IMG/VR virus record: IMGVR_UViG_3300012933_000388
Location: 1-64,000 of that record
DNA: 64,000 nucleotides
Strand: one strand, 5' to 3'
Source: a virus
Lineage: Duplodnaviria > Heunggongvirae > Uroviricota > Caudoviricetes
Shown here: positions 27,804 to 63,769 of the stretch, piece after piece
Position numbering within the stretch: position 1 is the first letter of the stretch
Layout: every line of letters begins with the position of its first letter
Notes under the pieces: generated by a model
What the model was told of the DNA's origin: nothing
Seen by the model: only the letters and a program-made list of their open reading frames with translations
Database searches by the model: none
Position numbers and translations under genes: made by a program

Positions 27804-28022
27804 TCACTTTGTAGTACTATATGTGTATACGCCAGAAGGCTTACCAAAGATATTATTTCCATACACTTCCACTCTAACGGTCTTGCCATTTCCGAATGGA
27901 TTAATGCCATATTTGAATGCATTTCGGAATGTTTTATAGCCACTGATAATACAGCGGTTATTCATTCCTACCTCATCATAGCTACCATCTGCATTCTGCT
28001 TAGTCACCAAATAGCTAGTCAT
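27804..28022 (-). CDS. hypothetical protein (72 aa)
   Basis: AAGGAG SD 9 nt upstream of ATG 28022. The ORF-track N-terminal extension was rejected. Confidence 0.55.
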   Translation of the reverse strand: MTSYLVTKQNADGSYDEVGMNNRCIISGYKTFRNAFKYGINPFGNGKTVRVEVYGNNIFGKPSGVYTYSTTK

Positions 28023-28026
28023 TGAT

Positions 28027-28146
28027 TCATTCTCCTTCAAATGCATTGTCGCCATATGTGTCAAACTCAGTACCCTGGTTAGCCCAATAGTCGTACTCTT
28101 CACACAGTGCCACTAATTCTTCCAACTCTTGATCGATATTGCTCAT
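28027..28146 (-). CDS. small acidic protein (39 aa)
   Basis: Starts 1 nt after the stop of 28147-28317. MSNIDQELEELVALCEEYDYWANQGTEFDTYGDNAFEGE. Confidence 0.35.
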   Translation of the reverse strand: MSNIDQELEELVALCEEYDYWANQGTEFDTYGDNAFEGE

Positions 28147-28317
28147 TTACTTCCCCTGGTTATAAATGTCGTTTTCTAAATCACAAAACAGCGATTCAGT
28201 GCCATTGACTAGATCTAGTTCACTTTCATCGAAAATGCCTAATCTTTTGCCATGCCAAATCATTCCGAGAACTAACGAGACTTGCTGCTCGTTTAGTGTT
28301 ACTGTGATCTCTTTCAT
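28147..28317 (-). CDS. small hypothetical protein (56 aa)
   Basis: AGGAGA SD 5 nt upstream. First gene after minus-strand promoter 28340-28368. Confidence 0.45.
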   Translation of the reverse strand: MKEITVTLNEQQVSLVLGMIWHGKRLGIFDESELDLVNGTESLFCDLENDIYNQGK

Positions 28318-28339
28318 CGTTATCTCCTATTGAACCACG

Positions 28340-28368
28340 ATTATCTGACAAAAACGAAAGTTGGTCAA
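28340..28368 (-). promoter_or_regulatory. early promoter cassette, minus strand
   Basis: Minus strand reads TTGACC-N17-GATAAT (ttgaccaactttcgtttttgtcagataat), the same family as the plus-strand cassettes. Confidence 0.55.
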
Positions 28369-28528
28369 CATAGGCGATTAGTATCAGACTGAGCTGTACG
28401 CTTATTCTAAAAGTCATTTGTCCGCAGCCGCCGTCCACCCCAGTTGCTTTCGAATGACCCTATTATACATGGTTTTGGGAAGTCGGCAACTAGGCTGTAA
28501 GTATCAGACTAGAGTTGAAGGGTACTGG

Positions 28529-28557
28529 TTGTACAAATTCCAAAACTATTGTACAAT
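28529..28557 (+). promoter_or_regulatory. early promoter cassette (island variant)
   Basis: TTGTAC-N17-TACAAT, spacer aaattccaaaactattg. Confidence 0.5.
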
Positions 28558-28578
28558 AGTGTTTTAGGAGATAAAAAA

Positions 28579-28917
28579 ATGAATAAAGTTGTTTTTGGTT
28601 TTGGTGTGAGTGTTGATTTTATTAAAAAGAATGTTGATTTTGATTTTGAATTTGAGGGTAGTGGTGTATATGAGTTTGTTGGTGGTAGTGGTGAAATATA
28701 TGGTTATGAGAAGATTAGTAATAATAATGAAGTTGAATTGATGAATGTGGATGATATTCTAAATTCTATTGTTGATGAAGATTTTAGTGAAAAAGATATT
28801 AACAAATTGAAAGAGTTTGTTTTTAGTGATTTTGATGATGATTTGGGTTGTGAGAAAATGAGGTATGTTTGTTGTTATGGTGAGGATGATTTTAGAGAAT
28901 ATTATTATGTGAAATAA
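28579..28917 (+). CDS. acidic hypothetical protein encoded by a nearly C-free ORF
   Basis: TAGGAG SD then ATG 28579. Only 3 cytosines in the ORF, and the product lacks A, P, T, H and Q. N-terminal MNKVVFGFGV resembles 29337 and 30209 ORF products. Confidence 0.55.
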   Translation: MNKVVFGFGVSVDFIKKNVDFDFEFEGSGVYEFVGGSGEIYGYEKISNNNEVELMNVDDILNSIVDEDFSEKDINKLKEFVFSDFDDDLGCEKMRYVCCYGEDDFREYYYVK

Positions 28918-28923
28918 TAACAT

Positions 28924-28980
28924 ACTAAAATGTAAGCTTATTTTAAAAAAGTTGTACAAAATTGAAATTTGTATTATAAT
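28924..28980 (+). repeat. 57-nt direct repeat copy 1 containing promoter TTGTAC-N17-TATAAT (28952-28980)
   Basis: actaaaatgtaagcttattttaaaaaagttgtacaaaattgaaatttgtattataat is almost identical to 29246-29303. Confidence 0.8.
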
Positions 28981-29025
28981 ATATTTGTAATTTGATAAAA
29001 TGTAAACTTTTTAAAAGGGGATAGT

Positions 29026-29208
29026 ATGAAAGTAGCAAAAGTTGTGTTGAACATTGAAGTGTCAATTAATGAAAATGATTATAATGATTTGATGGCAAAT
29101 TTGAAAGATGTTTGTGGGTTGACTAATAAGTGTGACTTAGAAAATTATATTAGTGATGGTTTAGTGTATGATATTGAGAAAAATAATAGTAAGTTTTTGT
29201 TTGATTAA
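29026..29208 (+). CDS. acidic hypothetical protein (C-poor ORF)
   Basis: AAGGGGA SD. 6 cytosines in 183 nt. Confidence 0.5.
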   Translation: MKVAKVVLNIEVSINENDYNDLMANLKDVCGLTNKCDLENYISDGLVYDIEKNNSKFLFD

Positions 29209-29214
29209 AAGTGG

Positions 29215-29238
29215 GAGGGACACGAAAGTGTCCTTTCT
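29215..29238 (+). terminator. rho-independent terminator
   Basis: GGGACAC-gaaa-GTGTCC followed by tttct. Confidence 0.55.
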
Positions 29239-29245
29239 ATACTTT

Positions 29246-29303
29246 ACTAAAATGTAAGCTTATTTGAAAAAAAGTTGTACAAAATTGAAATTTGTATTAT
29301 AAT
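29246..29303 (+). repeat. 58-nt direct repeat copy 2 containing promoter TTGTAC-N17-TATAAT (29275-29303)
   Basis: Differs from copy 1 by one substitution and one extra A. Confidence 0.8.
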
Positions 29304-29336
29304 TGGTTTTCTGTTTAAATGAAAAAGGAATTTGAA

Positions 29337-29714
29337 ATGAATACAAAAGTGTTTAGTTTTGGTGTGGATGAAGATTCGTTAACTTTTGAAACAGAATTTG
29401 ATTCTTTAGAGTCTTATTTTAAAGTGGAAGGAATTCGCTATTGTGGCTATTTCTTAGACAAATATAATACTGAGGTAGTCAATAGTGTTACTGTTCAAGA
29501 TAAAGAGGAACTTTTTGATTATGATGAAGGTGAGTTAGAATTAGCTAAGTTTGATGAAATGGTAGCTAAGTATGATTCATTTTTGAAAAATAATAGTGAT
29601 TATGTGTTAGTCAATTATTGTATTGAATATGATATTTCTTGGATATTAATGAGTAAAGCTGATTATGCTAAGTTTTTAGAATTGTGTGAACTAGAAGTAG
29701 CAAACGAAGAATAA
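29337..29714 (+). CDS. acidic hypothetical protein, paralog of 28579-28917
   Basis: AAAAGGAA SD then ATG 29337. MNTKVFSFGVDEDS parallels MNKVVFGFGVSVDF. Confidence 0.55.
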   Translation: MNTKVFSFGVDEDSLTFETEFDSLESYFKVEGIRYCGYFLDKYNTEVVNSVTVQDKEELFDYDEGELELAKFDEMVAKYDSFLKNNSDYVLVNYCIEYDISWILMSKADYAKFLELCELEVANEE

Positions 29715-29718
29715 AATT

Positions 29719-29742
29719 GGGAACCGAAAGGTTCCCTTTTTT
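29719..29742 (+). terminator. rho-independent terminator
   Basis: GGGAACC-gaaa-GGTTCCC followed by tttttt. Confidence 0.75.
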
Positions 29743-29751
29743 ATCTCTATC

Positions 29752-29777
29752 GGAAACAAAAGTGCCAATCGCCCCCG
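29752..29777. repeat. GGAAACAAAA motif copy 3
   Basis: GGAAACAAAAGTGCCAATCGCCCCC, in the same orientation as copies at 27661 and 27695. Confidence 0.7.
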
Positions 29778-29810
29778 GCCGAGTAAGCTTACACTTTGAT
29801 TGGTTATTGG

Positions 29811-29839
29811 TTGACCAAATTCCAAAACTGTGTGATAAT
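29811..29839 (+). promoter_or_regulatory. early promoter cassette
   Basis: TTGACC-N17-GATAAT, preceded by ttggttattgg. Confidence 0.6.
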
Positions 29840-29868
29840 TCAGTCATCGATTAAATGAAAGGTCTGTT

Positions 29869-30132
29869 ATGACAAAGTTTTTGGTTGAGGTTGTTTCGAT
29901 TGAAGATGGTGAGTATTATTCTGATAACAATGTTTCTGGATCTACTGTGAATGTGACATTACAACGTGGTAGTGACTTTGCTAGTTGTGATCAGATTTTG
30001 TTTTGGGAAGCAACTGATCAAGAAGAGTTAAACGATCTGTTCGATGAGTGGGTCGATTTGGCTATCGGTGGTGAGGAAGGCTATAGTGCTATGATCACTG
30101 AAAATGGTGTTACAAAAATGTATTCTCAATAA
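29869..30132 (+). CDS. hypothetical acidic early protein
   Basis: Single ORF between two cassettes. SD AAAGG. Confidence 0.6.
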   Translation: MTKFLVEVVSIEDGEYYSDNNVSGSTVNVTLQRGSDFASCDQILFWEATDQEELNDLFDEWVDLAIGGEEGYSAMITENGVTKMYSQ

Positions 30133-42042: not shown

Positions 42043-42882
42043 ATGATGTACAATAACAAAATGGTCGCCGTTATCAAGACTGGTGGCAGAGTTCTTCGCG
42101 AAGCGGACAGCACAGTCTACCTTCCATTCGGATGCGAGTATTCGATCCTTCTCAAAAACCTCAACACCGTTCGCGCTGAAGTCAAAATCACAATCGATGA
42201 TGTGGATGTCCTTGGTGGCAATACGATTGTCGTCAATGCTAATGACAGAGTAGAGCTTGAGCGTTTCCTCAAAGACCTTTCTAAAGGTAACCGATTCAAA
42301 TTCATCGAGCGTTCTGCTAGCGTAGAAGAGCATCGTGGCGTCGGTGCTACCGATGGCCTGATCCGCATTGAATGGCAATTCGAAAAGCCACGTCCAATTT
42401 ATACCGCTCGCCCAGATCCATTCCCACAATGGGGCGGCCAAACACCATCGCAATGGCTTACCGCTTCTGGGTATAATGTCAACGGTGTGATGCGTAGCGT
42501 CGATTTCAGCAATGGTGAGGCTACTAAGGCATATGCATCCGCTGCTGCAGATGTTACATTAGCACAGATGGGGTATGCGACAAACAGCGAAGTGCATGAT
42601 GGCATGGCAACAATGGATTGTGCATTTGCCGCACCTGCTAATGATGTTGGTATTACTGTTCCAGGATCAATGTCCGGTCAGAAGTTCACTACAGTCGCTT
42701 CGTTCCCATTGGAAGAACAAAAATACGCAATGGTGTTGCAACTGAAGGGCGAAACAGCGGATAATAAGGTAACGGCTCCTGTGACCGTAAAGGCTAAACC
42801 AAAGTGTGTAACTTGTGGTAAGGTAAATAAGGCCACAGCAAAGTTTTGTTCTAATTGTGGAACAGCATTAGAGATCGTATAA
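42043..42882 (+). CDS. hypothetical protein with C-terminal zinc-ribbon
   Basis: TAGGAG SD. C-terminal CVTCGKVNKATAKFCSNCG. Confidence 0.6.
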   Translation: MMYNNKMVAVIKTGGRVLREADSTVYLPFGCEYSILLKNLNTVRAEVKITIDDVDVLGGNTIVVNANDRVELERFLKDLSKGNRFKFIERSASVEEHRGVGATDGLIRIEWQFEKPRPIYTARPDPFPQWGGQTPSQWLTASGYNVNGVMRSVDFSNGEATKAYASAAADVTLAQMGYATNSEVHDGMATMDCAFAAPANDVGITVPGSMSGQKFTTVASFPLEEQKYAMVLQLKGETADNKVTAPVTVKAKPKCVTCGKVNKATAKFCSNCGTALEIV

Positions 42883-43025
42883 TGAAAAGCATGAAGCAAG
42901 CAGCTAATTTTAAGATGCGTGGTAGAATTACCATGCGTTGCCATTGCCGCTGCTGCGAGGTTTTTAATCCGAAGTGGGCATATCGTATGAAAATGGCTGC
43001 CAAGGATATAAAAGAATTGTTGTAA
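42882..43025 (+). CDS. small basic Cys-rich protein (47 aa)
   Basis: TAATG junction. CHCRCC motif. Ends immediately before the tmRNA acceptor piece. Confidence 0.35.
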   Translation: MKSMKQAANFKMRGRITMRCHCRCCEVFNPKWAYRMKMAAKDIKELL

Positions 43026-43080
43026 TCCCTTCAAAGAGAAGGACTTCTGGACGCGGGTTCGACTCCCGCCATCTCCACCA
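43026..43080 (+). ncRNA. ssrA: tmRNA acceptor piece (3' half of a permuted ssrA gene); 5' boundary uncertain
   Basis: GCGGG-TTCGACT-CCCGC T-arm, 3' acceptor strand CATCTCC and encoded ACCA (43077-43080). Complementary to GGGGATG at 43219. Confidence 0.8.
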
Positions 43081-43218
43081 AAAGTAATCACCGAAGTGAC
43101 TAGGAATAAAAGCGGTCATCGAGTTAGGGCATCAGGTCAAGACTGTGTTAGTAGTGTGGACAGCCTCCCTAACCGACCACTAAGGCGAGTGGTTGAGAAT
43201 GCAACGATTACTTTTGAT
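43081..43218 (+). other. structured intervening segment of the permuted tmRNA precursor
   Basis: AAAGTAATC (43081-89) pairs with GATTACTTT (43206-14). Internal helices GTTAGGG/CCCTAAC and ACCACT/AGTGGT. Confidence 0.6.
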
Positions 43219-43455
43219 GGGGATGCCATGGTTTCGACAGGGGTAGATATTAGAGACGGCAACACGGTAGGCGATGACCGCAAATCAAGCAAATAAAAGT
43301 AACTGCAAACGAAAGCTCTTACGCATTGGCAGCCTAAACGCTGACTAGGGTTTCGGATGGTTTCCTCGTAACAGAATAACCATCCACTAATATATCAGAC
43401 ACGTTGCCCATTAGAGGCCCTGTATGGTCTAGCAGTACCATCAAAGAAACTGCTA
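43219..43455 (+). ncRNA. ssrA: tmRNA coding piece (5' half of the permuted ssrA gene); 3' boundary uncertain
   Basis: GGGGATGCCATGGTTTCGACAGGGG 5' end. Tag ORF GCAAACGAAAGCTCTTACGCATTGGCAGCCTAA (43305-43337, ANESSYALAA*). Helix 43355-62/43378-85 and H-type pseudoknot 43424-43455. Confidence 0.8.
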
Positions 43456-43503
43456 ATATTGCTTATCATAAGTAATAGACCAAATCAAATAGATGGAGAT
43501 TCA

Positions 43504-43644
43504 ATGTCGCTCATCCCACAAGATAAACTAGCAACAGATTTCTGGCAACACAACTGTGAAGCAAAAGAAGGTGCTGTAGTTTATAACGAAAAGGGCAAAC
43601 CTTGCCCCTACTGCTCGGCAACCGAGCCCAAGCCAACCAAATAA
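43504..43644 (+). CDS. small hypothetical protein (46 aa)
   Basis: GATGGAGA SD then ATG 43504. CPYC motif. Confidence 0.4.
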   Translation: MSLIPQDKLATDFWQHNCEAKEGAVVYNEKGKPCPYCSATEPKPTK

Positions 43645-44328: not shown

Positions 44329-44608
44329 GTTGGAATCTATTAAAGAGTATCTCCGTCATATCTCGACGGAGACTATCGGATGGCTAGCTGTGATTATGAT
44401 TCACTGTAGTACGATTCCTCCTATCCTCGCTCTTCTGCTCGGCGTATCAGACCACCTACCTTCTATTGATGTGGTAGCGTTTATGTGGTTCGGTTTAATC
44501 TTGCTTTTCATCAAAGCTCTGATTACCAAAGATATGTTGAATGTTATTACTATTGGCGTGGGGTTCATCATCCAAGCCATGTTACTCGGATTATTGGTAT
44601 TCAAATAA
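44321..44608 (+). CDS. holin candidate (3 TM membrane protein)
   Basis: Overlaps the endolysin stop. Three hydrophobic helices. Position is the main argument. Confidence 0.5.
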   Translation: MDKLESIKEYLRHISTETIGWLAVIMIHCSTIPPILALLLGVSDHLPSIDVVAFMWFGLILLFIKALITKDMLNVITIGVGFIIQAMLLGLLVFK

Positions 44609-44847
44609 TGGAAGAACAAATCAATCAACTCATTAACGTCCAGGACTTCTTATTAAAGATCGAATCGATCTCACGCGAGAAGCGTTTAGACGCTATGGAC
44701 GCAGTACTGTGGTATTGTGCCAACTCAGGCCTCGAAATTGAGACCGCTGCTGAGCTTATTCGTAAGAATGCAAAGATGAAAGCTCGCATCAAAAACGATG
44801 CAGAGAACAATGGATATTTTCCTAAGACCGCAAAGCTACCAATTTAA
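44608..44847 (+). CDS. gp33: late transcription coactivator (T4 gp33-like)
   Basis: TAATG junction. LDAMDAVLWYCANSGLEIETAAELIRKNAKMKARIKNDAE parallels the T4 gp33 core (MSYLEATTAFLEENSIPETQFAKFI...). Confidence 0.5.
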   Translation: MEEQINQLINVQDFLLKIESISREKRLDAMDAVLWYCANSGLEIETAAELIRKNAKMKARIKNDAENNGYFPKTAKLPI

Positions 44848-44891: not shown

Positions 44892-45476
44892 ATGAATGGA
44901 TACGAAGCGTACAAGTTATATGTTGCGATGAAGAACCACTTCAATTCGCAATCATATGACTACTTCAAGTACGGTGGCAAGACTCGGGCAAGTTTAGCCG
45001 CGTTTGAGAAACGGAACGATAAGCATTTCTTCAATGTCATTGGACGACATAAGGACTGCCAGAACTATATCCTCGCTAACATTGTTGAAGGTGGTCCCGA
45101 TCTTTGGGTCGGAGACATTGCCAACGAGCAACAAGCAGAGAGTGTGTATCTAAAGTGGAAAGCAAAGAACGAATCATTGACGTATAACTTTACGAATGAC
45201 TTGGATAAGATGCTTCCATCGTATGATGATAATTTGCTGGTGGAGCAGGGCCAGCATCCCCACTTATTGAAATTAGCAATGAGCAAAACAATTAACATTG
45301 AGACGCTCGTTATACTAAACGATATGTGTGGGTTCTTTAAGTATTGGTCTCGAAACATTACGGATCCTGTTGTTTGGCCTCGGTATAAGATGCTCGTCAA
45401 GAAGTACCGACCATTCGTTACATTTGATCAACAAAAAATGAAAAAAATTGTTGTAGATCACTTCAAAACCCAGTAA
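44892..45476 (+). CDS. gp59: helicase loader (T4 gp59-like)
   Basis: YEAYKLYVAMKNHFN..YDYFKY...AAFEKRNDKHFF...LANIVEG..DLWVGDI aligns with the T4 gp59 N-terminal domain. Immediately upstream of gp32 as in T4. Confidence 0.7.
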   Translation: MNGYEAYKLYVAMKNHFNSQSYDYFKYGGKTRASLAAFEKRNDKHFFNVIGRHKDCQNYILANIVEGGPDLWVGDIANEQQAESVYLKWKAKNESLTYNFTNDLDKMLPSYDDNLLVEQGQHPHLLKLAMSKTINIETLVILNDMCGFFKYWSRNITDPVVWPRYKMLVKKYRPFVTFDQQKMKKIVVDHFKTQ

Positions 45477-45559: not shown

Positions 45560-46486
45560 ATGGCAGATTTTAGCTCCCTCAAGAAAAACAGCAAGTCACA
45601 ATTCGACAAGCTCGTATCAGAAGTTCAGAAACTGAACGCACCAGCCCAAGGCGGCAACTCCCAAGACGAAGACAAGTACTGGAAACCAGAAGTAGATAAA
45701 GCTGGTAACGGCTACGCTATTCTCCGTTTCTTACCAGCACCAGGTGGTGAGGACCTTCCATACGTCCGTATCTTCGACCATGGCTTCCAAGGCCCAGGTG
45801 GATGGTACATCGAGAAGTCTTTGACTACGCTTGGTGAAAAGGATCCAGTATCCGAATACAACAGCCAGTTGTGGAACTCAGGCATCGAAGCAAACAAAGA
45901 ACTCGTGCGTAAGCAAAAGCGTCGTTTGTCTTTCGTCTCTAACGTGTTGGTCGTTAAAGATCCAGCACACCCAGAGAACGAAGGTAAGGTCATGTTGTTC
46001 AAGTATGGCAAGAAGATCTGGGACAAGATCGAACTCGCTATGAACCCAGAGTTCGAAGATGAACAAAAGATCAACCCATTTGATATGTGGGAAGGTGCAA
46101 ACTTCAAACTCAAGATCCGTAAGGTTGAAGGCTATCGTAACTACGATAAGTCAGAGTTCGAAGCAGCAGCTCCTATCAGTCAAGATGATGATGAGTTGGA
46201 AGCAATTTGGAAACAAGAGCACTCACTTGCTGAGTTGGTCGATCCAAAGAACTTCAAGTCTTATGATGAATTGAAGGCCCGTCTCCACAAAGCCTTGGCT
46301 TTGGATGGTCGCACTCAACCACGTACGACGGCAGAGTCTTCAACTGCTCCATGGGACGACGAACCAGCAGCTCCAGCAGCTTCTGCTCCAGCGTTCAAGA
46401 CAGCAGCAGCTCGCCCAGCTCCAGCAGCAACAGTAGATGACGATGATGATTCATTGGACTTCTTCAAGAAGCTCGCAGAAGAGTAA
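45560..46486 (+). CDS. gp32: single-stranded DNA-binding protein (T4 gp32-like)
   Basis: DKAGNGYAILRFLPAP...HGFQGPGGWYIE...LVVKDPAHPENEGKVMLFKYGKKIWDKI aligns with T4 gp32. Acidic C-terminal tail DDDDDSLDFF. Confidence 0.85.
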   Translation: MADFSSLKKNSKSQFDKLVSEVQKLNAPAQGGNSQDEDKYWKPEVDKAGNGYAILRFLPAPGGEDLPYVRIFDHGFQGPGGWYIEKSLTTLGEKDPVSEYNSQLWNSGIEANKELVRKQKRRLSFVSNVLVVKDPAHPENEGKVMLFKYGKKIWDKIELAMNPEFEDEQKINPFDMWEGANFKLKIRKVEGYRNYDKSEFEAAAPISQDDDELEAIWKQEHSLAELVDPKNFKSYDELKARLHKALALDGRTQPRTTAESSTAPWDDEPAAPAASAPAFKTAAARPAPAATVDDDDDSLDFFKKLAEE

Positions 46487-46519: not shown

Positions 46520-49015
46520 TCATATGGTTCCACCAGATGTATACCACGTCTGTCTTTGACCGAAGGAGTGCTTCTCCTTATACTGGCTAACTGGCGGCAC
46601 TGATGGTGGCGTACGGTTGCTGTTGCCGCCTGATGGTGCAGCTCCACGATTGCCTCCTCCATCGGATGGTACTGTCATTCCAGCGAAGTTACCTTGTAGT
46701 ATACCTTGCATCATGTTGCCTAGGTCTTGATACTCGCGAATCGAATCTTGTAGCCCAGTAATATTCTTTATTTGTTGATCGTCCAATCCCAGTGCTTTGA
46801 GGTTACCAGTATCAAACCCTGTTGCGCTAGATACAGTCGTAGACATATTTCCACGACCCTGTGCATTACTTGCTCTGTTTTCGAGATCGGCTAAGGTAAT
46901 GCTGCCTTTATTGTCTGAATCGAGTCCCTTATTTGCCTCATACTCCCTCGATCCTTTGCTATACATCACAAAGTCTTTGTTCTTTAGAGCAGCTGGCTTG
47001 AAGATAGACGCGTATATTTGTCCTTTGGTTGCACCATGTGGTAGGCCAACTTTGTCGAAGTATTTGTCTACCCACTTCATCTGGCCAGCACGGGACATCC
47101 CAGCCAATTCAGTAGTCGATGTACCTAACCACTTTGCGGTCTTGTCCATAAACTGTATGAGGCCAGTTGCACTACTATTTGGGTTCTTACGCGACGGATC
47201 GAATGTGCTGTTCTCTGCCTTCATCACACTGAGTAGGTCCGATACGCTGATTCCGTGCTTATCAGCCACTCGCTGAACTTCGGCCATAAATGCCTTATCA
47301 GCAAGCACATCTTTAGGTACAAATGATAGGTCGCCTTGTTGTGTTGTATTAGACGAACCAGCTGGCATGCTATTAGGAGTGATGTTATTATCTCTTCCTG
47401 CTGATGTGTCGTTGCTATTATTGATGTTAGTTGCGGCAACGTTTGGCGTCTTTGTTCTAAATTGGTCAGCAAGCAAGCTTGAGCCTACTCCTATACCCAT
47501 ACTAACACCGAATCCCAAACCACCTGTCAGGCCTGTTGCAGCTAGAGATGCTGCGACACCAGTCGCTGTGATTGCAGCAGCTGCATAATCGCCGTTTTGT
47601 ATGTCTTCATATATGCCAGGCAACGACATTGCTACGTTCAAAGCTCCGAAGATTTTACCTGAGTTCTTAGCAATCATGCCGCCAGCTTCTTTGCCTAGAT
47701 CGCTAGCTTTGCTGATTGCGCCGCCGATTGTGGCTTGAGTCTTGCTCAGCGTGCTTGCTTGTTGCTCAGCTGCTCTCTCCATTGCTAAACGACGAGCTTG
47801 TGCTTGAGCACCTACAGTGCCGTAATCGGACAACTTGACGGCGCTTCCTATTTCTGGAGTAGCGACAGGAGGAGCCTTTTTAAATAAATTAGCAAGCCAT
47901 GGGCTACCAGTAGCAGATCCCGTTGCTTGAGGAATAGCATCAGCCGCGCCGGCGGAAGGCTTTACTTTACCCTTAGAAAGGAAATACATCGCAGCAGCTG
48001 GCAATGCAATTGAACCTGCAGCCGCCAACCCAGGCGACTCTTGTGATGCTGCATAACCACCCAATGCGCCTAGCGATCCAGCTGCAGTCTTACCCATGAA
48101 TCCTGTAAGGCCGAGCATTTTGAGTACCGGGTATTTCTTGGCGAGTAGTGCAAGTCCCCCTACGCCGAGTGCTCCTCCAACTAACGGAGCTGCATCATTT
48201 GCAAAGTCCCGAGGATCAGACTTCCCTGTATATGACCACTCTTTAGTCTTCTTATCCTGCTCGAATCCCAACAACTTACCGATATCGTTTTCAGCGCCAG
48301 TCGCAATCTTTCTACCAATAGCAATGCCGAGAGCTTTCGTGCCCGACCAAACCTGGCTCGCAATGAAGTCGGCAATGTCGCCACCCTTCGCTGCTAGCTT
48401 TTCCTGTAGGTCTTTGCTCAATTCTTCCTTAGCTGGGAGCTTAGCTCCTCTTAGGAAATCATCAACAAATCCTTCGATCTTATCTTTGTTTTGATATGCG
48501 TATCCAGCACCAGCAACAATACCAGCACCCATCAACGCCTTCTTTATAGCACTAGCAATCGCATCGGCATTGGTTGAAGCAGCTGAGGCCTGTTTGTCTT
48601 GGATATCGTTTGTGACAATTACTGATGATCTATTGAACGACGTGTCCTTGATGTTCGCTCCGACCTTCATTGCTTGAAGCTGAGCGATGTTGATCTTTCG
48701 AATGTCGCCGAGGATATTATTCATCGCACGCAATTGAACATTCATTTTATTGAGGCTGTTCTTGCTAGTAGCGGTCATCGTCTTGATGTCTACTACATCC
48801 TTTGCGGTTTTCTTAGCTTCCTTCTCGGTACTCTTGCCTTGTTGTTTCTTATACTCAGCTACGGTCTGTCTAATTAGAGGCCCAACACCAAGCCCGAGCC
48901 CATATATCGATTTACGTGGGTCGAACTGGCTCATTACGCTTTCTTTTGCGTCTTTGGCAGTTGTTGCTACTCGGTTCTTTGCGCCTGTAGCTAATGCATC
49001 TAATAGACTGGCCAT
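46520..49015 (-). CDS. tail tape measure / baseplate hub protein (gp29-position) with lytic transglycosylase (SLT) domain
   Basis: 831 aa. Gly/Ala-rich hydrophobic repeats. SLT motif LSVMKAENSTFDP...SSATGLIQFMDKTAKWLG in the C-terminal third. Confidence 0.6.
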   Translation of the reverse strand: MASLLDALATGAKNRVATTAKDAKESVMSQFDPRKSIYGLGLGVGPLIRQTVAEYKKQQGKSTEKEAKKTAKDVVDIKTMTATSKNSLNKMNVQLRAMNNILGDIRKINIAQLQAMKVGANIKDTSFNRSSVIVTNDIQDKQASAASTNADAIASAIKKALMGAGIVAGAGYAYQNKDKIEGFVDDFLRGAKLPAKEELSKDLQEKLAAKGGDIADFIASQVWSGTKALGIAIGRKIATGAENDIGKLLGFEQDKKTKEWSYTGKSDPRDFANDAAPLVGGALGVGGLALLAKKYPVLKMLGLTGFMGKTAAGSLGALGGYAASQESPGLAAAGSIALPAAAMYFLSKGKVKPSAGAADAIPQATGSATGSPWLANLFKKAPPVATPEIGSAVKLSDYGTVGAQAQARRLAMERAAEQQASTLSKTQATIGGAISKASDLGKEAGGMIAKNSGKIFGALNVAMSLPGIYEDIQNGDYAAAAITATGVAASLAATGLTGGLGFGVSMGIGVGSSLLADQFRTKTPNVAATNINNSNDTSAGRDNNITPNSMPAGSSNTTQQGDLSFVPKDVLADKAFMAEVQRVADKHGISVSDLLSVMKAENSTFDPSRKNPNSSATGLIQFMDKTAKWLGTSTTELAGMSRAGQMKWVDKYFDKVGLPHGATKGQIYASIFKPAALKNKDFVMYSKGSREYEANKGLDSDNKGSITLADLENRASNAQGRGNMSTTVSSATGFDTGNLKALGLDDQQIKNITGLQDSIREYQDLGNMMQGILQGNFAGMTVPSDGGGNRGAAPSGGNSNRTPPSVPPVSQYKEKHSFGQRQTWYTSGGTI

Positions 49016-56749: not shown

Positions 56750-57178
56750 ATGACAATAACAACAGTAGCAGATAGATACACATCGACTGACATTAAGACC
56801 GAGCTATTCAGCGATCTAGGCGTCAACTTTCAATTGCATCCCGGTAAGCGGGATCTCGTTCGTTTAACGGATGAGAGCTCTGTCAAGCGATCGATTGTTA
56901 ATTTGTTATTGACTGACTATCACGAGCGATTCCATCAGCCATATCTTGGCGCTAACATTAAGCATTTGTTGTTTGAACCGGCCACTGAAGACACATTGTC
57001 CCTACTAAGACATAGAATTTTGACTTGTATTAGTAAATTCGAGCCACGCGCAAATGTAATCTCGTTGAGAGTGACTACAACCCCTGATGAGCACCACGTT
57101 CAAGTGAATATGGTGTTTAGTGTAGTGAACACCTCAACCCCTGTATCACTTAACCTCCTTCTTAATAGAGTACGATAA
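56750..57178 (+). CDS. gp25: baseplate wedge protein (GPW/gp25 family)
   Basis: VKRSIVNLLLTDYHERFHQPYLGANIKHLLFEP is the gp25 signature. Confidence 0.8.
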   Translation: MTITTVADRYTSTDIKTELFSDLGVNFQLHPGKRDLVRLTDESSVKRSIVNLLLTDYHERFHQPYLGANIKHLLFEPATEDTLSLLRHRILTCISKFEPRANVISLRVTTTPDEHHVQVNMVFSVVNTSTPVSLNLLLNRVR

Positions 57179-58986
57179 TGGCCAATAGTAACGGTTCAGT
57201 CAACCTTGTCAATCTAGACTTTGATACCCTAAAGTCATCATTTAAATCATATCTGAGCTCACAGACGGCGTTTCGGGACTACAACCTCGAAGGATCGAAC
57301 CTGAGTGTGTTGCTCGATGTGATGGCATACAACACATATATCAACTCATTCTACTTAAACATGGTAGCGAGCGAGATGTATTTGGATACAGCACAGCTGA
57401 GAGCTAGTGTAATATCGCACGCTAAAGAATTAAACTATACTCCTCGTTCGTTTAGATCGGCCAAGGCTATTGTTAATCTAGCCATTGCGCCAACCAATCC
57501 GACCGGAATTACTACAGTTACTGTTCCGCGTGGAACATCCTTCACTAGTAAGGTTGGCTCAAACACATATACGTTCACAGTTCCAGATAACTTGCTGATC
57601 ACTGGTTCGATCGATGGCGTCTTTTATGCAAGCAACGTTGCGTTGTATGAAGGATCGTTGATTACTGACACGTTTGTATATAACTCATCTAACGAGGGAC
57701 AGCGTTTCATCTTGTCAAACCCGACCGTAGATACCACAAGCCTGCGTGTATATGTTACTGAGAACAATGGTAGTTCGGTATTGCAATATCAACAAGCAAC
57801 ATCATACTTGGGCATGACAGCATCGACCCAAGGATTCTTCGTGCAAGCTGCTGAGAATGATTTGTATGAGATATTATTCGGTAATGGCGAGCAAGGACGT
57901 ATGCCTAGCCATGGAGCAATTATTTCCGTCGTATATCAAGTAGGTAATGGTGAGTTGCCAAACGGATGTAGTATATTCTCCAGCGATGATGCTATTGACG
58001 GCCACACCAATGTACGCGTGACTACAGTTCAAGACGCAATGGGAGGAGCCGTCCACGAAACGACACAGATGATTAGACGCAATGCGCCTAGATTCTATCA
58101 AACTCAAGAACGTGCCGTTACAGCCACCGACTACCAAACACTGCTCCAGCTTGCATATCCTGAAATTTCTGCAATTTATGTGTATGGGGGCGAAGAAGCT
58201 CAACCACCCCGATATGGTAAGGTGTTGGTATCTGTCGACATCGATAACGCCGATGGTGTATCTGACTCGAAGAAGGAAGAGTACAGAAAGTTTCTCAAAA
58301 CTAGATGTCCATTGACGATTGATCCTATCTTTATCGATCCTGAATTCCTGAACGTGGAAGTGTATAGCAATGTGTCTTATAACATCAACACGACTCCTGT
58401 ATCTGAGTCTGAGCTCATTTCAGCAATCAAGACTAAGGTTAGAGTATTCAACGAGCAAACGCTGAATGACTTCAACGCGGTATGTCGCTATTCAAAGCTC
58501 GTCAATGAAATCGATGCTACATCAGAGCACGTCATTAGTAATAGCACAGATCTGATGGTGTATAAGGAGTTGAATCCTACACTAAACTCTACAGAACCGT
58601 TTACGGTCAGCTTTTATAATAAACTCAAGTCGACACAGTCGTCTAGCACGCTTCACTCGTATACAGACAGTCACACAGTATCATCTACGTATTTTACATA
58701 CCAAGGCAACACCTGTAAGATAGAAGATGATGGGTATGGTGTGATACGTATCGTGGCACTCACCTATGGTACCACTGGTCATACTACTATAGTTAATATT
58801 GGTACTGTTGATTATGATACTGGTACTATTGTATTTGAGGGCGGTCTGCCGATCTCTGCATATGAAGGACCGTATATCCGCCTGCGTGTTGTCACTGATA
58901 GTAAGGACATCGACGCATCGCAGAATAACATTATCAGAATCAAGGATGATGACATTTACATCAACGTAACTGGTGAGCGTGCATAA
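57178..58986 (+). CDS. gp6: baseplate wedge protein (Baseplate_J / T4 gp6-like)
   Basis: TAATG junction after gp25. 602 aa. FDTLKSSFKSYL...SNLSVLLDVMAYN N-terminus typical of J-like proteins. Confidence 0.7.
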   Translation: MANSNGSVNLVNLDFDTLKSSFKSYLSSQTAFRDYNLEGSNLSVLLDVMAYNTYINSFYLNMVASEMYLDTAQLRASVISHAKELNYTPRSFRSAKAIVNLAIAPTNPTGITTVTVPRGTSFTSKVGSNTYTFTVPDNLLITGSIDGVFYASNVALYEGSLITDTFVYNSSNEGQRFILSNPTVDTTSLRVYVTENNGSSVLQYQQATSYLGMTASTQGFFVQAAENDLYEILFGNGEQGRMPSHGAIISVVYQVGNGELPNGCSIFSSDDAIDGHTNVRVTTVQDAMGGAVHETTQMIRRNAPRFYQTQERAVTATDYQTLLQLAYPEISAIYVYGGEEAQPPRYGKVLVSVDIDNADGVSDSKKEEYRKFLKTRCPLTIDPIFIDPEFLNVEVYSNVSYNINTTPVSESELISAIKTKVRVFNEQTLNDFNAVCRYSKLVNEIDATSEHVISNSTDLMVYKELNPTLNSTEPFTVSFYNKLKSTQSSSTLHSYTDSHTVSSTYFTYQGNTCKIEDDGYGVIRIVALTYGTTGHTTIVNIGTVDYDTGTIVFEGGLPISAYEGPYIRLRVVTDSKDIDASQNNIIRIKDDDIYINVTGERA

Positions 58987-61900
58987 TGAGTATACTTCTA
59001 CACGATAAGATCTCGCCTTTAATTGAATCGCAGTTTCCTGCCTTTTATAGGGAGGAAGGTCCTCAATTCGTTGCATTCGTAAAGGCATATTATGAATGGC
59101 TCGAGCAGACGAATAACCCACTGTATCATTCGCGCCATCTGCTGGACTATAAAGACATCGACCTCACGCTGGATGAGTTCGTACCTCACTTTGCATACAA
59201 ATACTTACACGGAACACAAACTTCAAAGATCGCATCTCAGCGTGATCTGATTAAACACTCACATGATCTTTACCAAACTAAAGGGACGATACAGTCGCTT
59301 GAGTTGGTATTTCGGATGTTGTTCGATCAGGATATTGAAGTGTATTATCCTGGAGATGATATTCTCCGAGCATCCGATGGTGTGTGGATTATCCCAAAAT
59401 ATATCGAGTTGTCTGTTAGCGACAAGGCTAGAGAGTTCGTCGGTAAGGATATTATAGGTAACTTGTCTGGATCAAGAGCGTTCGTTGAACGTGTCGATCG
59501 TAAAGTATTTGATGGTCGCGTTATCGATGTTGCATATTTGTCTAACGTACAACCAAACGTTGATACTGGTGCCACGTTCGTTTATGGTGAATATATCTCG
59601 ACTGATGGTATCATCAAGGATGCACCACGTGTAGTCGGATCATTAACTCGTGTTAACATCACGTCCTCAGGAAGTGGTTTTGCTGAGGGTGAAGTTGTAG
59701 ATATCGTATCTGACCGTCGTGGCCATAAAGGTACAGCGCGTGTAACTTCCGTTGGTAATAGAACTGGTGAAGTTAACTATAGATTGCTAGATGGGGGATA
59801 TGGGTATACGTTGAACGCCAACGTGTCTGGTATTTCCCAGAAGGTGTATGTGTCAGCCAACGTGCTATCGCTCACGTCGTTCACAAGCAGTAACACCTTC
59901 ACTAAAGGATTTCCAGAGTTTAGTACAATCGTCCAGCCTTTGACTGAGTTGTCATTCAGCACAGCCAACACCACATTCGCTGCGGGCGATATGATATATG
60001 GTACTACCAATACAACATCGAATGTCATAACTACTGGTTTTGTGTTGTCGGTTTCGCAAGCATTGGGATCTGGTACTCTATTGATATCCCCTCACACTAC
60101 AGCATTTGTTGATATCGATACTGTACAATTTGCTAATACGATCACGGGATCGTTTGCACTTGGCGAATCCATATATCAAACGAACAACAGCGGCAACTCA
60201 GCTGTTGGTGTTATCGTCGAAGCTAACTCTACGGTGATTGTTATTGATCAAAAGTATGGTCCTTTTGCAAATGGCGAACTGCTTGTTGGTAGCACGTCAG
60301 GAGCAACGGCCAACGCAACTGCTGTTAACACACGCGTATCTGACAACACCAATTTTACAGATAGTAATGTTACTCGAATCGTGATTGGTGAGACTGATCA
60401 GGGAGCGTATGTAACGGGAGCAACCGACGAGACGGCTTCAGCTAACGTCGTTGGATCCAATACTGGAGCTGTTGGGGTATTCAACATAACTAACAATTTC
60501 CGTGGCGGATCGTTTGCGCGCGTATACTCTCCTACCACTGGAGCGACGGCTGATATTACCGTAACAAGTAGTGGATATCCGGGACAATTTAAGATCGGTG
60601 CTATTGCAAACACGGAAGTTGTGTACCTTGGTGCGGATATGTTGAATGCTAATAATTCATCCAACGTGAGCTTCCTATCAGTCAATCTCGACGATCCTAC
60701 GTATGGGTTTTCAGCTAATGCTTCGGCAAACCTATCATCCGTACTTGCGTCTGCGTTCACTAAAAACCCATATACAATTGGTACGATTTTGTCGTTGACT
60801 GAACGTAACCCTGGTTTCGACAACACAGCTAAGCCGTTTGTTGTGGAGATTGAGCAGGTTGTGGCATCGTATGGTAAACGTAGCCGACTGACAGCAGGCG
60901 TAATTAATAGAGTGGGATCATACGGTATCGGCGAGACTGTAACTCAAACAATTAGCCTACCGCTTGCCAACGTTGGTATTACTAATGCAAGCAATACGTT
61001 CAATTTTAGCAGTAGAGAAACTATCAAACAAGTGCGTGCAGATGGGCACACTACATTTGGTGACCTATACACAACATCTGTTGTGGGTGCGAATGGATCA
61101 ATACGAATATTTGTTGCGAACACAGCGAACACATTTGACGCCTCAAACACGATCGTAGGTTTGGTATCCGGAAGTACTGCTAATGTGGTGTCGGTCGGTA
61201 TCACTAATACGAATATCGTTGCAGCGGGCATTGTTCGAGGTACTTTTGAAAATCAAATCGACATTCAACGAACCACGTTCACAGACTTCGTCAGAGATCT
61301 GCAGCTTTATGGATCTGAAACAGGTACAACATCTACTGTGATCACGCTCCAGGAAGATTCTTCCTCTGGGGTACTCGGCAATAATGCTTTCGTCGATCCA
61401 GAAGCAGGCATCTCCGACGGTCGAATTAATACACTCGAAGTGTTAGACTCAGGGTTCCTATATGAGGAAGGTGAACCGGTAATTGTGTCGGCACCAGGCA
61501 ATCAGATTACCGCTGCCGGTATTGCTCGTGTTGAGACTTATGGTACCTCACAAGGATATTGGAGAGGGGATCGTGGCACACTCGATAGTACTAAACGAAT
61601 TCAAGACAATGAATATTATCAAGAATACTCATATGAGATCCAGACTGGTCTTGATAAAGACAAATATGAGTCAGCAGTCAAGAGTCTAGCGCACGTCGTC
61701 GGCACAAAGATGTTTAGCAAATATGTCAACGTTTCTACGTCTAGTAAGCCTGTAGCAGCCGCTAATGCCACATACAATCGTATCACAACACTAACACTAA
61801 CGGGTGTATCGGGCACGTTTGCAAACAACGAAGTAGTTTCGCAGGCCGCCAATACTGCAAACGGTCGTGTTATATCGTTTAATGCGTCGCTAAATACATT

Positions 61901-62006
61901 GCAGCTAGTTGACACTACAGGATCGTTTATTGCAGCGGGAGTAGTAACAGGAGCAAACTCAACAGCTACCGGTACGATCTCCAGTACAAACCTTTTGTTT
62001 ATATAA
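58986..62006 (+). CDS. large baseplate wedge protein (gp7 position)
   Basis: 1006 aa between the gp6 and gp8 homologues. No motif-level match that I can verify. Confidence 0.45.
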   Translation: MSILLHDKISPLIESQFPAFYREEGPQFVAFVKAYYEWLEQTNNPLYHSRHLLDYKDIDLTLDEFVPHFAYKYLHGTQTSKIASQRDLIKHSHDLYQTKGTIQSLELVFRMLFDQDIEVYYPGDDILRASDGVWIIPKYIELSVSDKAREFVGKDIIGNLSGSRAFVERVDRKVFDGRVIDVAYLSNVQPNVDTGATFVYGEYISTDGIIKDAPRVVGSLTRVNITSSGSGFAEGEVVDIVSDRRGHKGTARVTSVGNRTGEVNYRLLDGGYGYTLNANVSGISQKVYVSANVLSLTSFTSSNTFTKGFPEFSTIVQPLTELSFSTANTTFAAGDMIYGTTNTTSNVITTGFVLSVSQALGSGTLLISPHTTAFVDIDTVQFANTITGSFALGESIYQTNNSGNSAVGVIVEANSTVIVIDQKYGPFANGELLVGSTSGATANATAVNTRVSDNTNFTDSNVTRIVIGETDQGAYVTGATDETASANVVGSNTGAVGVFNITNNFRGGSFARVYSPTTGATADITVTSSGYPGQFKIGAIANTEVVYLGADMLNANNSSNVSFLSVNLDDPTYGFSANASANLSSVLASAFTKNPYTIGTILSLTERNPGFDNTAKPFVVEIEQVVASYGKRSRLTAGVINRVGSYGIGETVTQTISLPLANVGITNASNTFNFSSRETIKQVRADGHTTFGDLYTTSVVGANGSIRIFVANTANTFDASNTIVGLVSGSTANVVSVGITNTNIVAAGIVRGTFENQIDIQRTTFTDFVRDLQLYGSETGTTSTVITLQEDSSSGVLGNNAFVDPEAGISDGRINTLEVLDSGFLYEEGEPVIVSAPGNQITAAGIARVETYGTSQGYWRGDRGTLDSTKRIQDNEYYQEYSYEIQTGLDKDKYESAVKSLAHVVGTKMFSKYVNVSTSSKPVAAANATYNRITTLTLTGVSGTFANNEVVSQAANTANGRVISFNASLNTLQLVDTTGSFIAAGVVTGANSTATGTISSTNLLFI

Positions 62007-62008
62007 GC

Positions 62009-63769
62009 ATGTCAAAAATATTCACTACAAAATTTAGAACAGCGGTTGTTGGTAGAATTATAACTACCAATCCAATATTCTACATGTTCCTTGGGAAGTC
62101 GCAAGAATTCCCAGACGACCTCAATCCTCCTGTGCCTACCGATCGTATATCGGAGACATATACAGGAGCATATGATTCGATGATCGTTGCTAAGTCCATC
62201 AAGACTACTGATATGTCTCCTATGATTCCACGCATTGACTGGCAAGCTGGGGTAGGGTATAAGGCATATCGTCAAGATTCTGGCTCGCTGTATGGAAACA
62301 ACTTTTATGTGTCCGTCAACTCCGGTAGTGGGTATGATGTGTTTAAGTGTTTAAGTAACAACGGCGTATTGTCTACCGTTCCACCGGACGCTACTGCAAC
62401 ATCCCCTTCCGATGATGTATATGAGACGTCGGATGGGTACCAGTGGAAATTCATGTACACTGTACCTAACGCAGTATTTACAAAATTTGCATCTAAAGAT
62501 TATATCCCAGTTTTTGCAAACGCCGCAGTCGTGGCCGCCGCCCAGCCTGGATCGATCGATTATGTTCAAGTAACGTATGGTGGATCAAATTACGACGCAA
62601 ACGCAAACGGCACCATTCAGGCAACGTCTGTTGGTGGTAATGCTCTAGTGCACATCATCGAATCTTCAGCATCCTCAAATGCTAACTTCTATACTGGGTC
62701 AGCGTTCAAGCTCACTACAGGGACAGGCGCCGGTCAGCAACGTACGGTTGCAGGATATCTGGTGTCAGGATCCACCAGAACTATTGTATTAGACCAGCCG
62801 TTTGATACGTCCCCAGATACCTCATCCACATACGAAATCACACCAAACGTGATAGCAGTTGGTAGTGGTAGCGATTTCCAAGCGCGCGCATTAATTAATA
62901 CAGCTGCTTCAAACTCTGTGTATAAGGTAGAGATTACCAATAGAGGCGTTGGGTATACTCACGGATCCCTATACGTTGCAGGTAACACAGGCGGTGTTAC
63001 AAACTCTGCCGCTGTAGAAGCTATCATTGGTCCTAAGGGTGGCCATGGATCAGATCCCATTAACGAGCTTGGTGGTAGGTATTTGTGTATCACTACCACA
63101 TTTAGTACAGCTGACGTAGAGGCAAACAACAAGGTACTCGACACAAGCAAGTTCCGTTCGATTGGTATTATATCCAATCCACTAATGGCCAACATCGAGT
63201 TGTCCTATACTAGTGCTACCGGTACCTTTATCGTTGGTGAGACCATCACTCAGCCAACCACAAATGCTGTCGGTAAGGTTGTAACCTACTCTGCTAATAC
63301 CATCACTCTGACTAACGTATCACGACACTTCCGCACTGGTAACTCCTCGGTGAATTATATCGTCGGTGGTAATTCTAGTGTGACTGCAGAAGTACTTGCT
63401 GTGAGAAACAACGGTAGTGCTAATCTGGTAGCAAACGTATCATATGCATGTCAACTCACTAAAGTTAATATATCGAGTCTTACAGGTGCGTTCGTACCTA
63501 ATGAGACTGTTACAATGACGGGTAACGTTGCAACATCCAATGCTGTTGTATATTTTGCTAACACATCCCAAGTGTGGTTAACTGAAGTTAGAGGAACTGT
63601 GGGTACCACAGTAGCTAGCTTGACTTCGGGGGCTTCTGCTCCTGTCGATTCCGTAATACCTCCTGATATTATATACGGAACTGGTGATATTTTCTATATG
63701 GAGAATTTTTCGCCGATAAATAAGTCATCAGGTCAAACAGAATCAATCAAAGCTATTATAGAATTCTAA
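62009..63769 (+). CDS. gp8: baseplate wedge protein (T4 gp8-like, enlarged)
   Basis: TTKFRT, NPPVPTD, MIPRIDW, YDVFKCL, DGYQWKFMYTVP, FRSIGIISNPL and GDIFYMENFSPI...TESIKAIIEF match the conserved blocks of T4 gp8 in order. Confidence 0.75.
   Translation: MSKIFTTKFRTAVVGRIITTNPIFYMFLGKSQEFPDDLNPPVPTDRISETYTGAYDSMIVAKSIKTTDMSPMIPRIDWQAGVGYKAYRQDSGSLYGNNFYVSVNSGSGYDVFKCLSNNGVLSTVPPDATATSPSDDVYETSDGYQWKFMYTVPNAVFTKFASKDYIPVFANAAVVAAAQPGSIDYVQVTYGGSNYDANANGTIQATSVGGNALVHIIESSASSNANFYTGSAFKLTTGTGAGQQRTVAGYLVSGSTRTIVLDQPFDTSPDTSSTYEITPNVIAVGSGSDFQARALINTAASNSVYKVEITNRGVGYTHGSLYVAGNTGGVTNSAAVEAIIGPKGGHGSDPINELGGRYLCITTTFSTADVEANNKVLDTSKFRSIGIISNPLMANIELSYTSATGTFIVGETITQPTTNAVGKVVTYSANTITLTNVSRHFRTGNSSVNYIVGGNSSVTAEVLAVRNNGSANLVANVSYACQLTKVNISSLTGAFVPNETVTMTGNVATSNAVVYFANTSQVWLTEVRGTVGTTVASLTSGASAPVDSVIPPDIIYGTGDIFYMENFSPINKSSGQTESIKAIIEF

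Follow-up and report, generated by a model that had tools for sequence, protein, structure and literature searches.

A circularly permuted, probably functional tmRNA gene of the betaproteobacterial type in an uncultured T4-like phage

How a phage comes to carry an RNA of trans-translation with the two halves of its gene in reversed order, and whether such a gene could serve the phage, are the questions raised by a locus in positions 1 to 64,000 of the IMG/VR virus record IMGVR_UViG_3300012933_000388 (this whole 64-kb stretch is called the window below). The locus encodes a transfer-messenger RNA (tmRNA, the product of ssrA), and we consider it very likely to be a functional ssrA, circularly permuted and betaproteobacterial in structural type, that resides in an uncultured T4-like myovirus. 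The gene is real; it is probably also functional, since covariation and an intact tag reading frame are found across about 45 relatives.

Gene order, pairing and the tag

A single RNA gene is called in the window by ARAGORN, a permuted tmRNA at 42988-43428. Two Rfam models agree, each covered from end to end: tmRNA_permuted (RF04321, positions 1-213 of 213) matches 43018-43337 with 147.5 bits against a threshold of 47 (E = 3.7e-29), and beta_tmRNA (RF01850, positions 1-331 of 331) matches 42974-43397 with 140.1 bits against a threshold of 84 (E = 9.4e-43), the latter match being retained among the overlapping matches of its clan. These E-values and the permuted ARAGORN call lie far beyond chance. 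They bear out the circularly permuted, two-piece gene that had been proposed from the letters of the window and their open reading frames (ORFs) alone (the sequence-only reading), and they do so above threshold over full models, not over a fragment.

The order of the parts is the permuted one, with T-arm, 3' acceptor strand and CCA (ending at 43080) encoded ahead of the 5' acceptor strand and tag (Table 1). Positions 43051-43080 read ACGCGGGTTCGACTCCCGCCATCTCCACCA, as claimed for the T-arm, acceptor strand and ACCA, and the matching 5' end does lie downstream, its first G at 43219 being 139 nucleotides (nt) past the CCA. The exact T-arm motif GGTTCGANTCC occurs once, and an exact-motif search of the 64 kb found no second T-arm, in keeping with the earlier statement that none follows the tag region. 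The two acceptor strands, GGGGATG and CATCTCC, pair at seven of seven positions including the G3:U wobble, and all seven pairs are kept in relatives.

Covariation was examined in an alignment of 35 distinct sequences, with the structure taken from the Rfam alignment plus the hairpin drawn in the sequence-only reading. Paired cells make up 88.9% of the total, compared with 75.2% after shuffling and 42-56% after sliding of the partners; changes on both sides occur in 35 pairs, and none of 500 shuffles attains any observed measure. The acceptor stem (P1) is 99.6% paired, with GC/CG/UA swaps at three positions, while the G3:U alanine identity pair (G3:U70) is kept in 35/35 sequences and the T-arm is 100% paired. 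Two helices that join the pieces behave similarly, P2a being 96.6% paired with three pairs changed on both sides and P2d 95.9% paired with five. In sum, the helices backed by covariation are P1, the T-arm, P2a, P2d, the 3' hairpin and the stem that closes the intervening segment; the stop-codon hairpin covaries along with the 3' hairpin, and the tRNA-like domain is the best-conserved part of the RNA in the alignment.

When cofolded without constraints, the two predicted mature pieces form P1, P2a, P2d, the T-arm and the 3' hairpin, in agreement with the covariation. The helix downstream of the tag that had been noticed by eye is thus present and covaries among relatives. Helix P2 and the helix joining the pieces could not be traced by eye at that stage; covariation and the cofold now trace P2a and P2d, and leave the central part of P2 ambiguous.

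Translation of the tag frame gives ANESSYALAA and a stop, exactly as first read. ARAGORN proposes the tag VTANESSYALAA, which begins two codons earlier; we reject this start, as the Rfam alignment and the ANDxxFALAA-type tags of relatives favour GCA at 43305. Tags called by ARAGORN at the same place in relatives include ANDSKFALAA, ANDNVFALAA and ANDSVYALAA, and across the approximately 45 relatives the frame is intact with an (A/L/M/I)AA end. Two relatives (L037 3917-4295 and L040 2573-2951) carry a 48-nt insertion in the tag region, for which ARAGORN reports a tag of 26 residues, AKTSTFKFMQVNVDVASNDSAFALAA; at the 3' end of L040, CCCCCA replaces CCACCA.

The segment between the halves has a structure of its own. 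It folds at -39.1 kcal/mol (z = -2.06), and its last four bases, TGAT (43215-18), are unpaired beside the predicted ribonuclease P (RNase P) site. A closing stem of 9-15 bp begins right after the CCA in most relatives, with differing sequences and compensatory changes. Segment length runs from 26 to 200 nt in phage genes, compared with a median near 26 nt for the 10 parsed genes from bacteria, so a long spacer is typical of phage copies and not peculiar to the window. These long, structured and variable segments offer a natural series for studying how permuted precursors are handled by RNase P and 3' nucleases.

Table 1. Features of the tmRNA locus and of neighbouring phage genes, in window coordinates
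Feature	Position	Strand	Basis or remark
47-aa Cys-rich ORF (MKSMKQAANFKMRGRITMRCHCRCCEVFNPKWAYRMKMAAKDIKELL)	42882..43025	+	translation
Acceptor piece (3' half of tRNA-like domain, encoded first)	43018..43080	+	RF04321 start, covariation, cofold; 5' end approximate
P2a 5' strand	43018-22	+	pairs with 43260-64
P2d 5' strand	43043-49	+	pairs with 43238-44
T-arm GCGGG/TTCGACT/CCCGC	43053-57/43065-69	+	loop TTCGACT
3' acceptor strand CATCTCC	43070-76	+	
ACCA (discriminator and encoded CCA)	43077-80	+	
Intervening segment, 138 nt	43081..43218	+	predicted to be excised; 9-bp closing stem 43081-89/43206-14 and three internal hairpins
Coding piece	43219..43390	+	RF01850 full-length match to 43397, covariation; 3' end approximate
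5' acceptor strand GGGGATG	43219-25	+	G3 = 43221; D-loop analogue also in coding piece
Small hairpin before tag	43265-68/43277-80	+	
Tag frame, GCA resume codon to TAA	43305..43337	+	ANESSYALAA*; translation, aligns to Rfam consensus tag region
Stop-codon hairpin	43330-33/43340-43	+	
3' hairpin	43355-62/43378-85	+	covaries
gp33-like late-transcription coactivator	44608-44847	+	PHROG/Pfam
gp59 helicase loader	44892-45476	+	PHROG/Pfam
gp32 single-stranded DNA-binding protein	45560-46486	+	PHROG 224, tblastn
Baseplate hub with lysozyme domain	46520-49015	minus	PHROG/Pfam
Baseplate wedge proteins	57178-63769		PHROG/Pfam

Relatives, the phage and the flanks of the gene

Two sets of relatives were used: the neighbouring 279-aa ORF led to 47 IMG/VR loci, and a 25-mer of the 5' acceptor region, matched exactly, to 24 others. 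About 45 of these related contigs from uncultured phages have a permuted tmRNA according to ARAGORN, both Rfam thresholds were passed by 12/12 relatives tested, and the gene is syntenic, with the same phage genes on either side of it in dozens of assemblies made independently. The IMG/VR phage genes are 83-94% identical to the tmRNA of the window.

Within the genome collection, the best match to the window gene (92% identical) comes from a metagenome-assembled genome (MAG) labelled Alteromonadales (L169, G+C 0.38). A second such match, from a MAG labelled Bifidobacterium (L130, G+C 0.39), is 66% identical overall, reaching 93-94% only in the acceptor piece and the initial ~90 nt of the coding piece, and has a tRNA with anticodon CUA beside the tmRNA. 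Both are most likely phage contigs misplaced in bacterial bins.

Judged by its gene content, the window is from a T4-like myovirus. The phage-borne character of the tmRNA gene, also part of the sequence-only reading, is upheld by homologues of gp32, gp59 and gp33 and of the baseplate proteins gp5/6/7/8; the Pfam matches for the gp33-gp59-gp32 context genes are PF16805, PF08993 and PF08994, and the tmRNA is separated from gp33 by a cell-wall hydrolase and small ORFs. By tblastn, window proteins are 35-63% identical to those of Caulobacter phage Cr30, Sinorhizobium phages of the phiM12 type, Stenotrophomonas phage DLP_6, cyanomyoviruses and a pelagimyophage, and no close isolate relative turned up when 20 kb of the window were compared by megablast with 50,697 phage records. 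The full phage genome probably exceeds 200 kb. Around the tmRNA gene G+C is 0.458, equal to the phage background, with no break in composition. Elsewhere in the window there is a low-GC island at 28001-30000 (G+C 0.32 compared with ~0.44 elsewhere, GC skew 0.30), which holds small ORFs lacking a Pfam match and in which no tandem repeats were found.

The upstream flank differs from that of many relatives. There, a near-consensus sigma-70-type promoter (TTGACA-17-TATAAT) stands ~7 nt before P2a, as it does in bacterial beta-type genes. In the window this place is taken by a Cys-rich ORF of 47 codons, whose start overlaps the stop of an upstream 279-aa zinc-ribbon ORF (TAATG) and whose own stop, TAA (43023-25), abuts the 5' strand of P2a. 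An analogous ORF, ending ...EELL*, occupies the promoter position in three relatives (L002, L004 and L006). Because the ORF takes the place of the promoter, this tmRNA is presumably released from a longer transcript. The 5' unpaired part of RF01850, which includes the promoter, aligns poorly in the window, with coding sequence standing there instead; such a promoter is a trait of the bacterial genes and not of the RNA, and its absence does not exclude membership in RF01850.

On the downstream side, the 3' hairpin of relatives is followed directly by a ribosome-binding site and an ORF, or by an intrinsic terminator. An H-type pseudoknot proposed earlier at 43424..43455 (+) can be drawn, but it is conserved in no relative, and the surrounding 43386-43504 folds no better than shuffles (z = -1.23); it is rejected as a part of the tmRNA.

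Predicted processing and competing explanations

A plausible course of events can be pieced together from the structure above and from what is established for tRNA processing, two-piece tmRNA and trans-translation. Transcription would proceed on the + strand, probably by read-through from the upstream ORFs, since the promoter of relatives is here replaced by the 47-aa ORF. In the precursor, 43070-76 pairs with 43219-25 while P2a and P2d clamp the two halves, as sequence, covariation and cofold all show, and the 138-nt segment folds as a closed stem-loop domain of its own. RNase P might then cut 5' of G43219 and the nucleases that mature tRNA 3' ends trim to the CCA at 43080, releasing the segment and leaving an acceptor piece of ~63 nt base-paired to a coding piece of ~170 nt; for two-piece tmRNA, Keiler, Shapiro and Williams (2000) is the source cited in PMC9004378. 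Host alanyl-tRNA synthetase would charge the CCA end through the invariant G3:U pair, and host SmpB and EF-Tu would deliver the RNA to ribosomes stalled on broken mRNAs. Translation could resume at GCA 43305, add ANESSYALAA and stop at UAA 43335, the YALAA end presumably marking the product for ClpXP-type proteolysis. The benefit to the phage may be that ribosomes are kept available during destruction of host mRNA and shut-off of host ssrA.

Several points weigh against a functional tmRNA of this kind. No promoter-like site was found directly upstream of the tmRNA in the window, and the + strand of 42766-43018 contains no promoter-like or terminator-like site. A tblastn search of the 64 kb with an E. 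coli SmpB sequence as query found no smpB; host SmpB is the expected partner, and function would depend on compatibility with it. Within the RNA, the intermolecular helix P2b is only 78.6% paired and has no pair changed on both sides, and the central part of P2 is fitted equally well by a local hairpin (43028-32/43038-42), which lacks covariation. Processing, charging and tagging are moreover extrapolated to this RNA from better-known ones.

Might the RNA then act as an inhibitor, its tRNA-like domain titrating host SmpB or alanyl-tRNA synthetase so as to shut down host trans-translation? Such inhibition has been proposed for a molecule of mycobacteriophage DS6A that consists of the tRNA-like domain only (PMC4131195, PMC11915505), and this precedent, together with the superior conservation of the tRNA-like domain and the lack of a visible smpB in the window, lends the idea some appeal. 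A decoy needs no tag, however, whereas resume codon, frame, stop and ALAA-type end are kept in about 45 diverged relatives, and both the stop-codon hairpin and the 3' hairpin covary; we regard a decoy as distinctly improbable. Improbable to a still greater degree is a non-functional passenger, either a decaying copy of a host ssrA or an att-site fragment left by integration into it. Phages and islands often do integrate in ssrA and carry its fragments (PMC9004378, PMC4131195), and the nearest bacterial relatives, in Rhodocyclales, are ~69% identical. Yet neither half is missing and the tag is complete, compensatory changes reveal selection for structure, and synteny around the gene extends to many T4-like contigs. 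In G+C it agrees with the phage and not with the ~0.6 of Rhodocyclales, neither disrupted tags nor broken acceptor stems were seen in relatives, and no integrase was found by PHROG/Pfam among the 25 ORFs surrounding the gene and the window's largest ORFs.

Chimeras do arise in metagenomic assembly, and the low-GC contigs L169 and L130 do sit in implausible MAG bins, so a bacterial ssrA region misjoined to a phage contig has also to be considered. The chance of this is close to nil: dozens of assemblies, each independent, have this gene in an unchanged phage setting, composition shows no break, and an independent Logan contig (SRR26556813) encodes an identical gp32 flanked by the same genes, although it starts ~300 bp downstream of the tmRNA and does not cover it. 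A functional two-piece tmRNA accordingly remains the reading that we favour.

A broader proposal can be attached to it, namely that the beta-type tmRNA is a long-standing, phage-adapted gene of a large uncultured T4-like clade and forms a translation-manipulation module with an adjacent suppressor tRNA. If so, suppressor-driven read-through of stop codons would send ribosomes to mRNA 3' ends, where the phage tmRNA would clear them; the tmRNA of the window would in addition be cut from a protein-coding transcript, as the ORF stop abuts P2a. An amber-suppressor-like tRNA with anticodon CUA, labelled tRNA-Pyl by ARAGORN, is close to the tmRNA locus in about 30 of the 47 IMG/VR relatives, the distance in many relatives being ~0.03-4 kb; examples, including one from a MAG contig, are L011 5835-5908, L026 5722-5796 (28 nt past the tmRNA) and L130 2944-3018. 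In Xanthomonas phage XacN1 two annotated tRNA-Sup genes (L072 329-487) lie 1 kb upstream of the permuted tmRNA, and in Alcaligenes phage QDWS595 a tRNA with anticodon UUA (L074 1785-1861) overlaps the tmRNA 3' end.

ARAGORN found no tRNA gene in the window, nor was any suppressor-tRNA remnant detected there, the sole matches being to the tmRNA's own T-arm; because the 64 kb hold no suppressor tRNA, the link is indirect for this phage. Adjacency of tRNA-CUA and tmRNA may reflect a functional link or mere proximity within tRNA clusters, and we think the module unlikely. Avoidance of TAG was considered as a sign of amber suppression. The 32 window ORFs of at least 150 aa end in TAA (22) or TGA (10) and never in TAG, which accounts for 4 of 100 stops in a wider set of window ORFs; the share in relatives is 6-8%, be tRNA-CUA present or absent, which gives no sign of avoidance, and the pattern is probably the ordinary rarity of TAG. 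By the tRNA cluster of one relative, ~5.7 kb upstream of its permuted tmRNA, there is also a GOLLD RNA (RF02032, 182 bits; L055 120-579).

Two-piece tmRNAs already on record

The sequence-only reading knew of no described permuted tmRNA in a phage. The identification of the gene was correct, but phages with a permuted tmRNA are already on record and the window is a new example only. Buchholz et al. (2022; PMC9004378) assign 53 of 133 unique phage tmRNAs to the two-piece form, describe such an ssrA in Melnitz, a T4-like phage of Methylophilales, and enter XacN1 and Stenotrophomonas phages as "Permuted" in their Table S1; a tmRNA database paper of 2025, in which RF04321 was introduced, counts 79 phage tmRNAs (PMC11915505). 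The tmRNAs of mycobacteriophages of the Bxz1 group and of Bacillus phage G are one-piece and in standard order, unlike that of the window, although these ssrA genes too are presumed to aid translation during infection (PMC4131195).

Among bacteria, a motif scan of genomes placed the core mainly in Rhodocyclales (Thauera, Azonexus, Dechloromonas, Accumulibacter and Propionivibrio). The beta tmRNA of this order (RF01850) shares with the window P2a, P2d, the tRNA-like domain, the hairpin before the tag, an ANDxxFALAA-type tag and the 3' hairpin. The Rhodocyclales genes are ~69% identical to that of the window and differ from it in G+C (~0.6 compared with 0.46), in the length of the intervening segment (the bacterial median given above compared with 138 nt) and in having the promoter of the RF01850 model. 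Beta-type permuted tmRNAs were also seen outside Rhodocyclales, in Pseudomonas indica (L140 84-413), in Cupriavidus (L136 and L139), in L087 and in a Bacteroidota MAG (L125), with the tags ANDERFALAA and ANDERFAVAA; these are perhaps second copies carried by mobile elements, or else the result of misbinning.

Beta-type genes are present as well in cultured phages, namely Xanthomonas phage XacN1, Pseudomonas phage PA_L9, Stenotrophomonas phage DLP_6 and Alcaligenes phage QDWS595, to which Pseudomonas phages PaMx31 and SM1 are added by similarity. The tmRNA gene is unannotated in the GenBank records of the first four. Like the gene of the window, those of cultured phages match RF01850 (94-108 bits) and have the permuted order; their tags are of the AND...AA type and their intervening segments span 31-114 nt. 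Their RNAs are 64-68% identical to that of the window and most of the carriers belong to other phage groups, DLP_6 being the T4-like one. A single beta-type phage lineage that would join the window with XacN1, DLP_6, PA_L9 and QDWS595 is rejected: at 64-68% these are no closer to the window than Rhodocyclales are (~69%).

Permuted tmRNA is known in three bacterial clades (PMC11915505), and it had been suggested that the architecture might hint at the clade of the host. This does not hold. Xanthomonas, Pseudomonas and Stenotrophomonas, hosts of beta-type phages, fall outside those three clades, and the beta type is found in the Cupriavidus and Pseudomonas indica genomes too. Since beta-type genes occur in phages of gammaproteobacterial hosts, the architecture is a weak guide; it indicates that the gene originated long ago in betaproteobacteria and does not identify the present host. 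With the beta type widespread in phages, including some whose hosts have a one-piece tmRNA, architecture alone should not be used to predict a host.

The closest parallel in setting is offered by Melnitz (MZ577097), with which related pelagimyophages are grouped. Both Melnitz and the window have a circularly permuted tmRNA in a T4-like myovirus, with an ALAA-ending tag and a score above the RF04321 threshold, and in both it lies on the same strand as, and upstream of, the gp33-gp59-gp32 cluster (directly upstream in Melnitz). The RNAs themselves are of different types, alpha in Melnitz (RF01849, 106.7 bits) and beta in the window (RF01850), and the Melnitz tmRNA is followed by a glutamine riboswitch, whereas Rfam found no riboswitch anywhere in the window. 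The shared slot suggests a preferred site for such cargo in T4-like genomes. None of these findings overturns current understanding; the window and its approximately 45 relatives add an uncultured T4-like clade to the phages known to carry two-piece tmRNAs.

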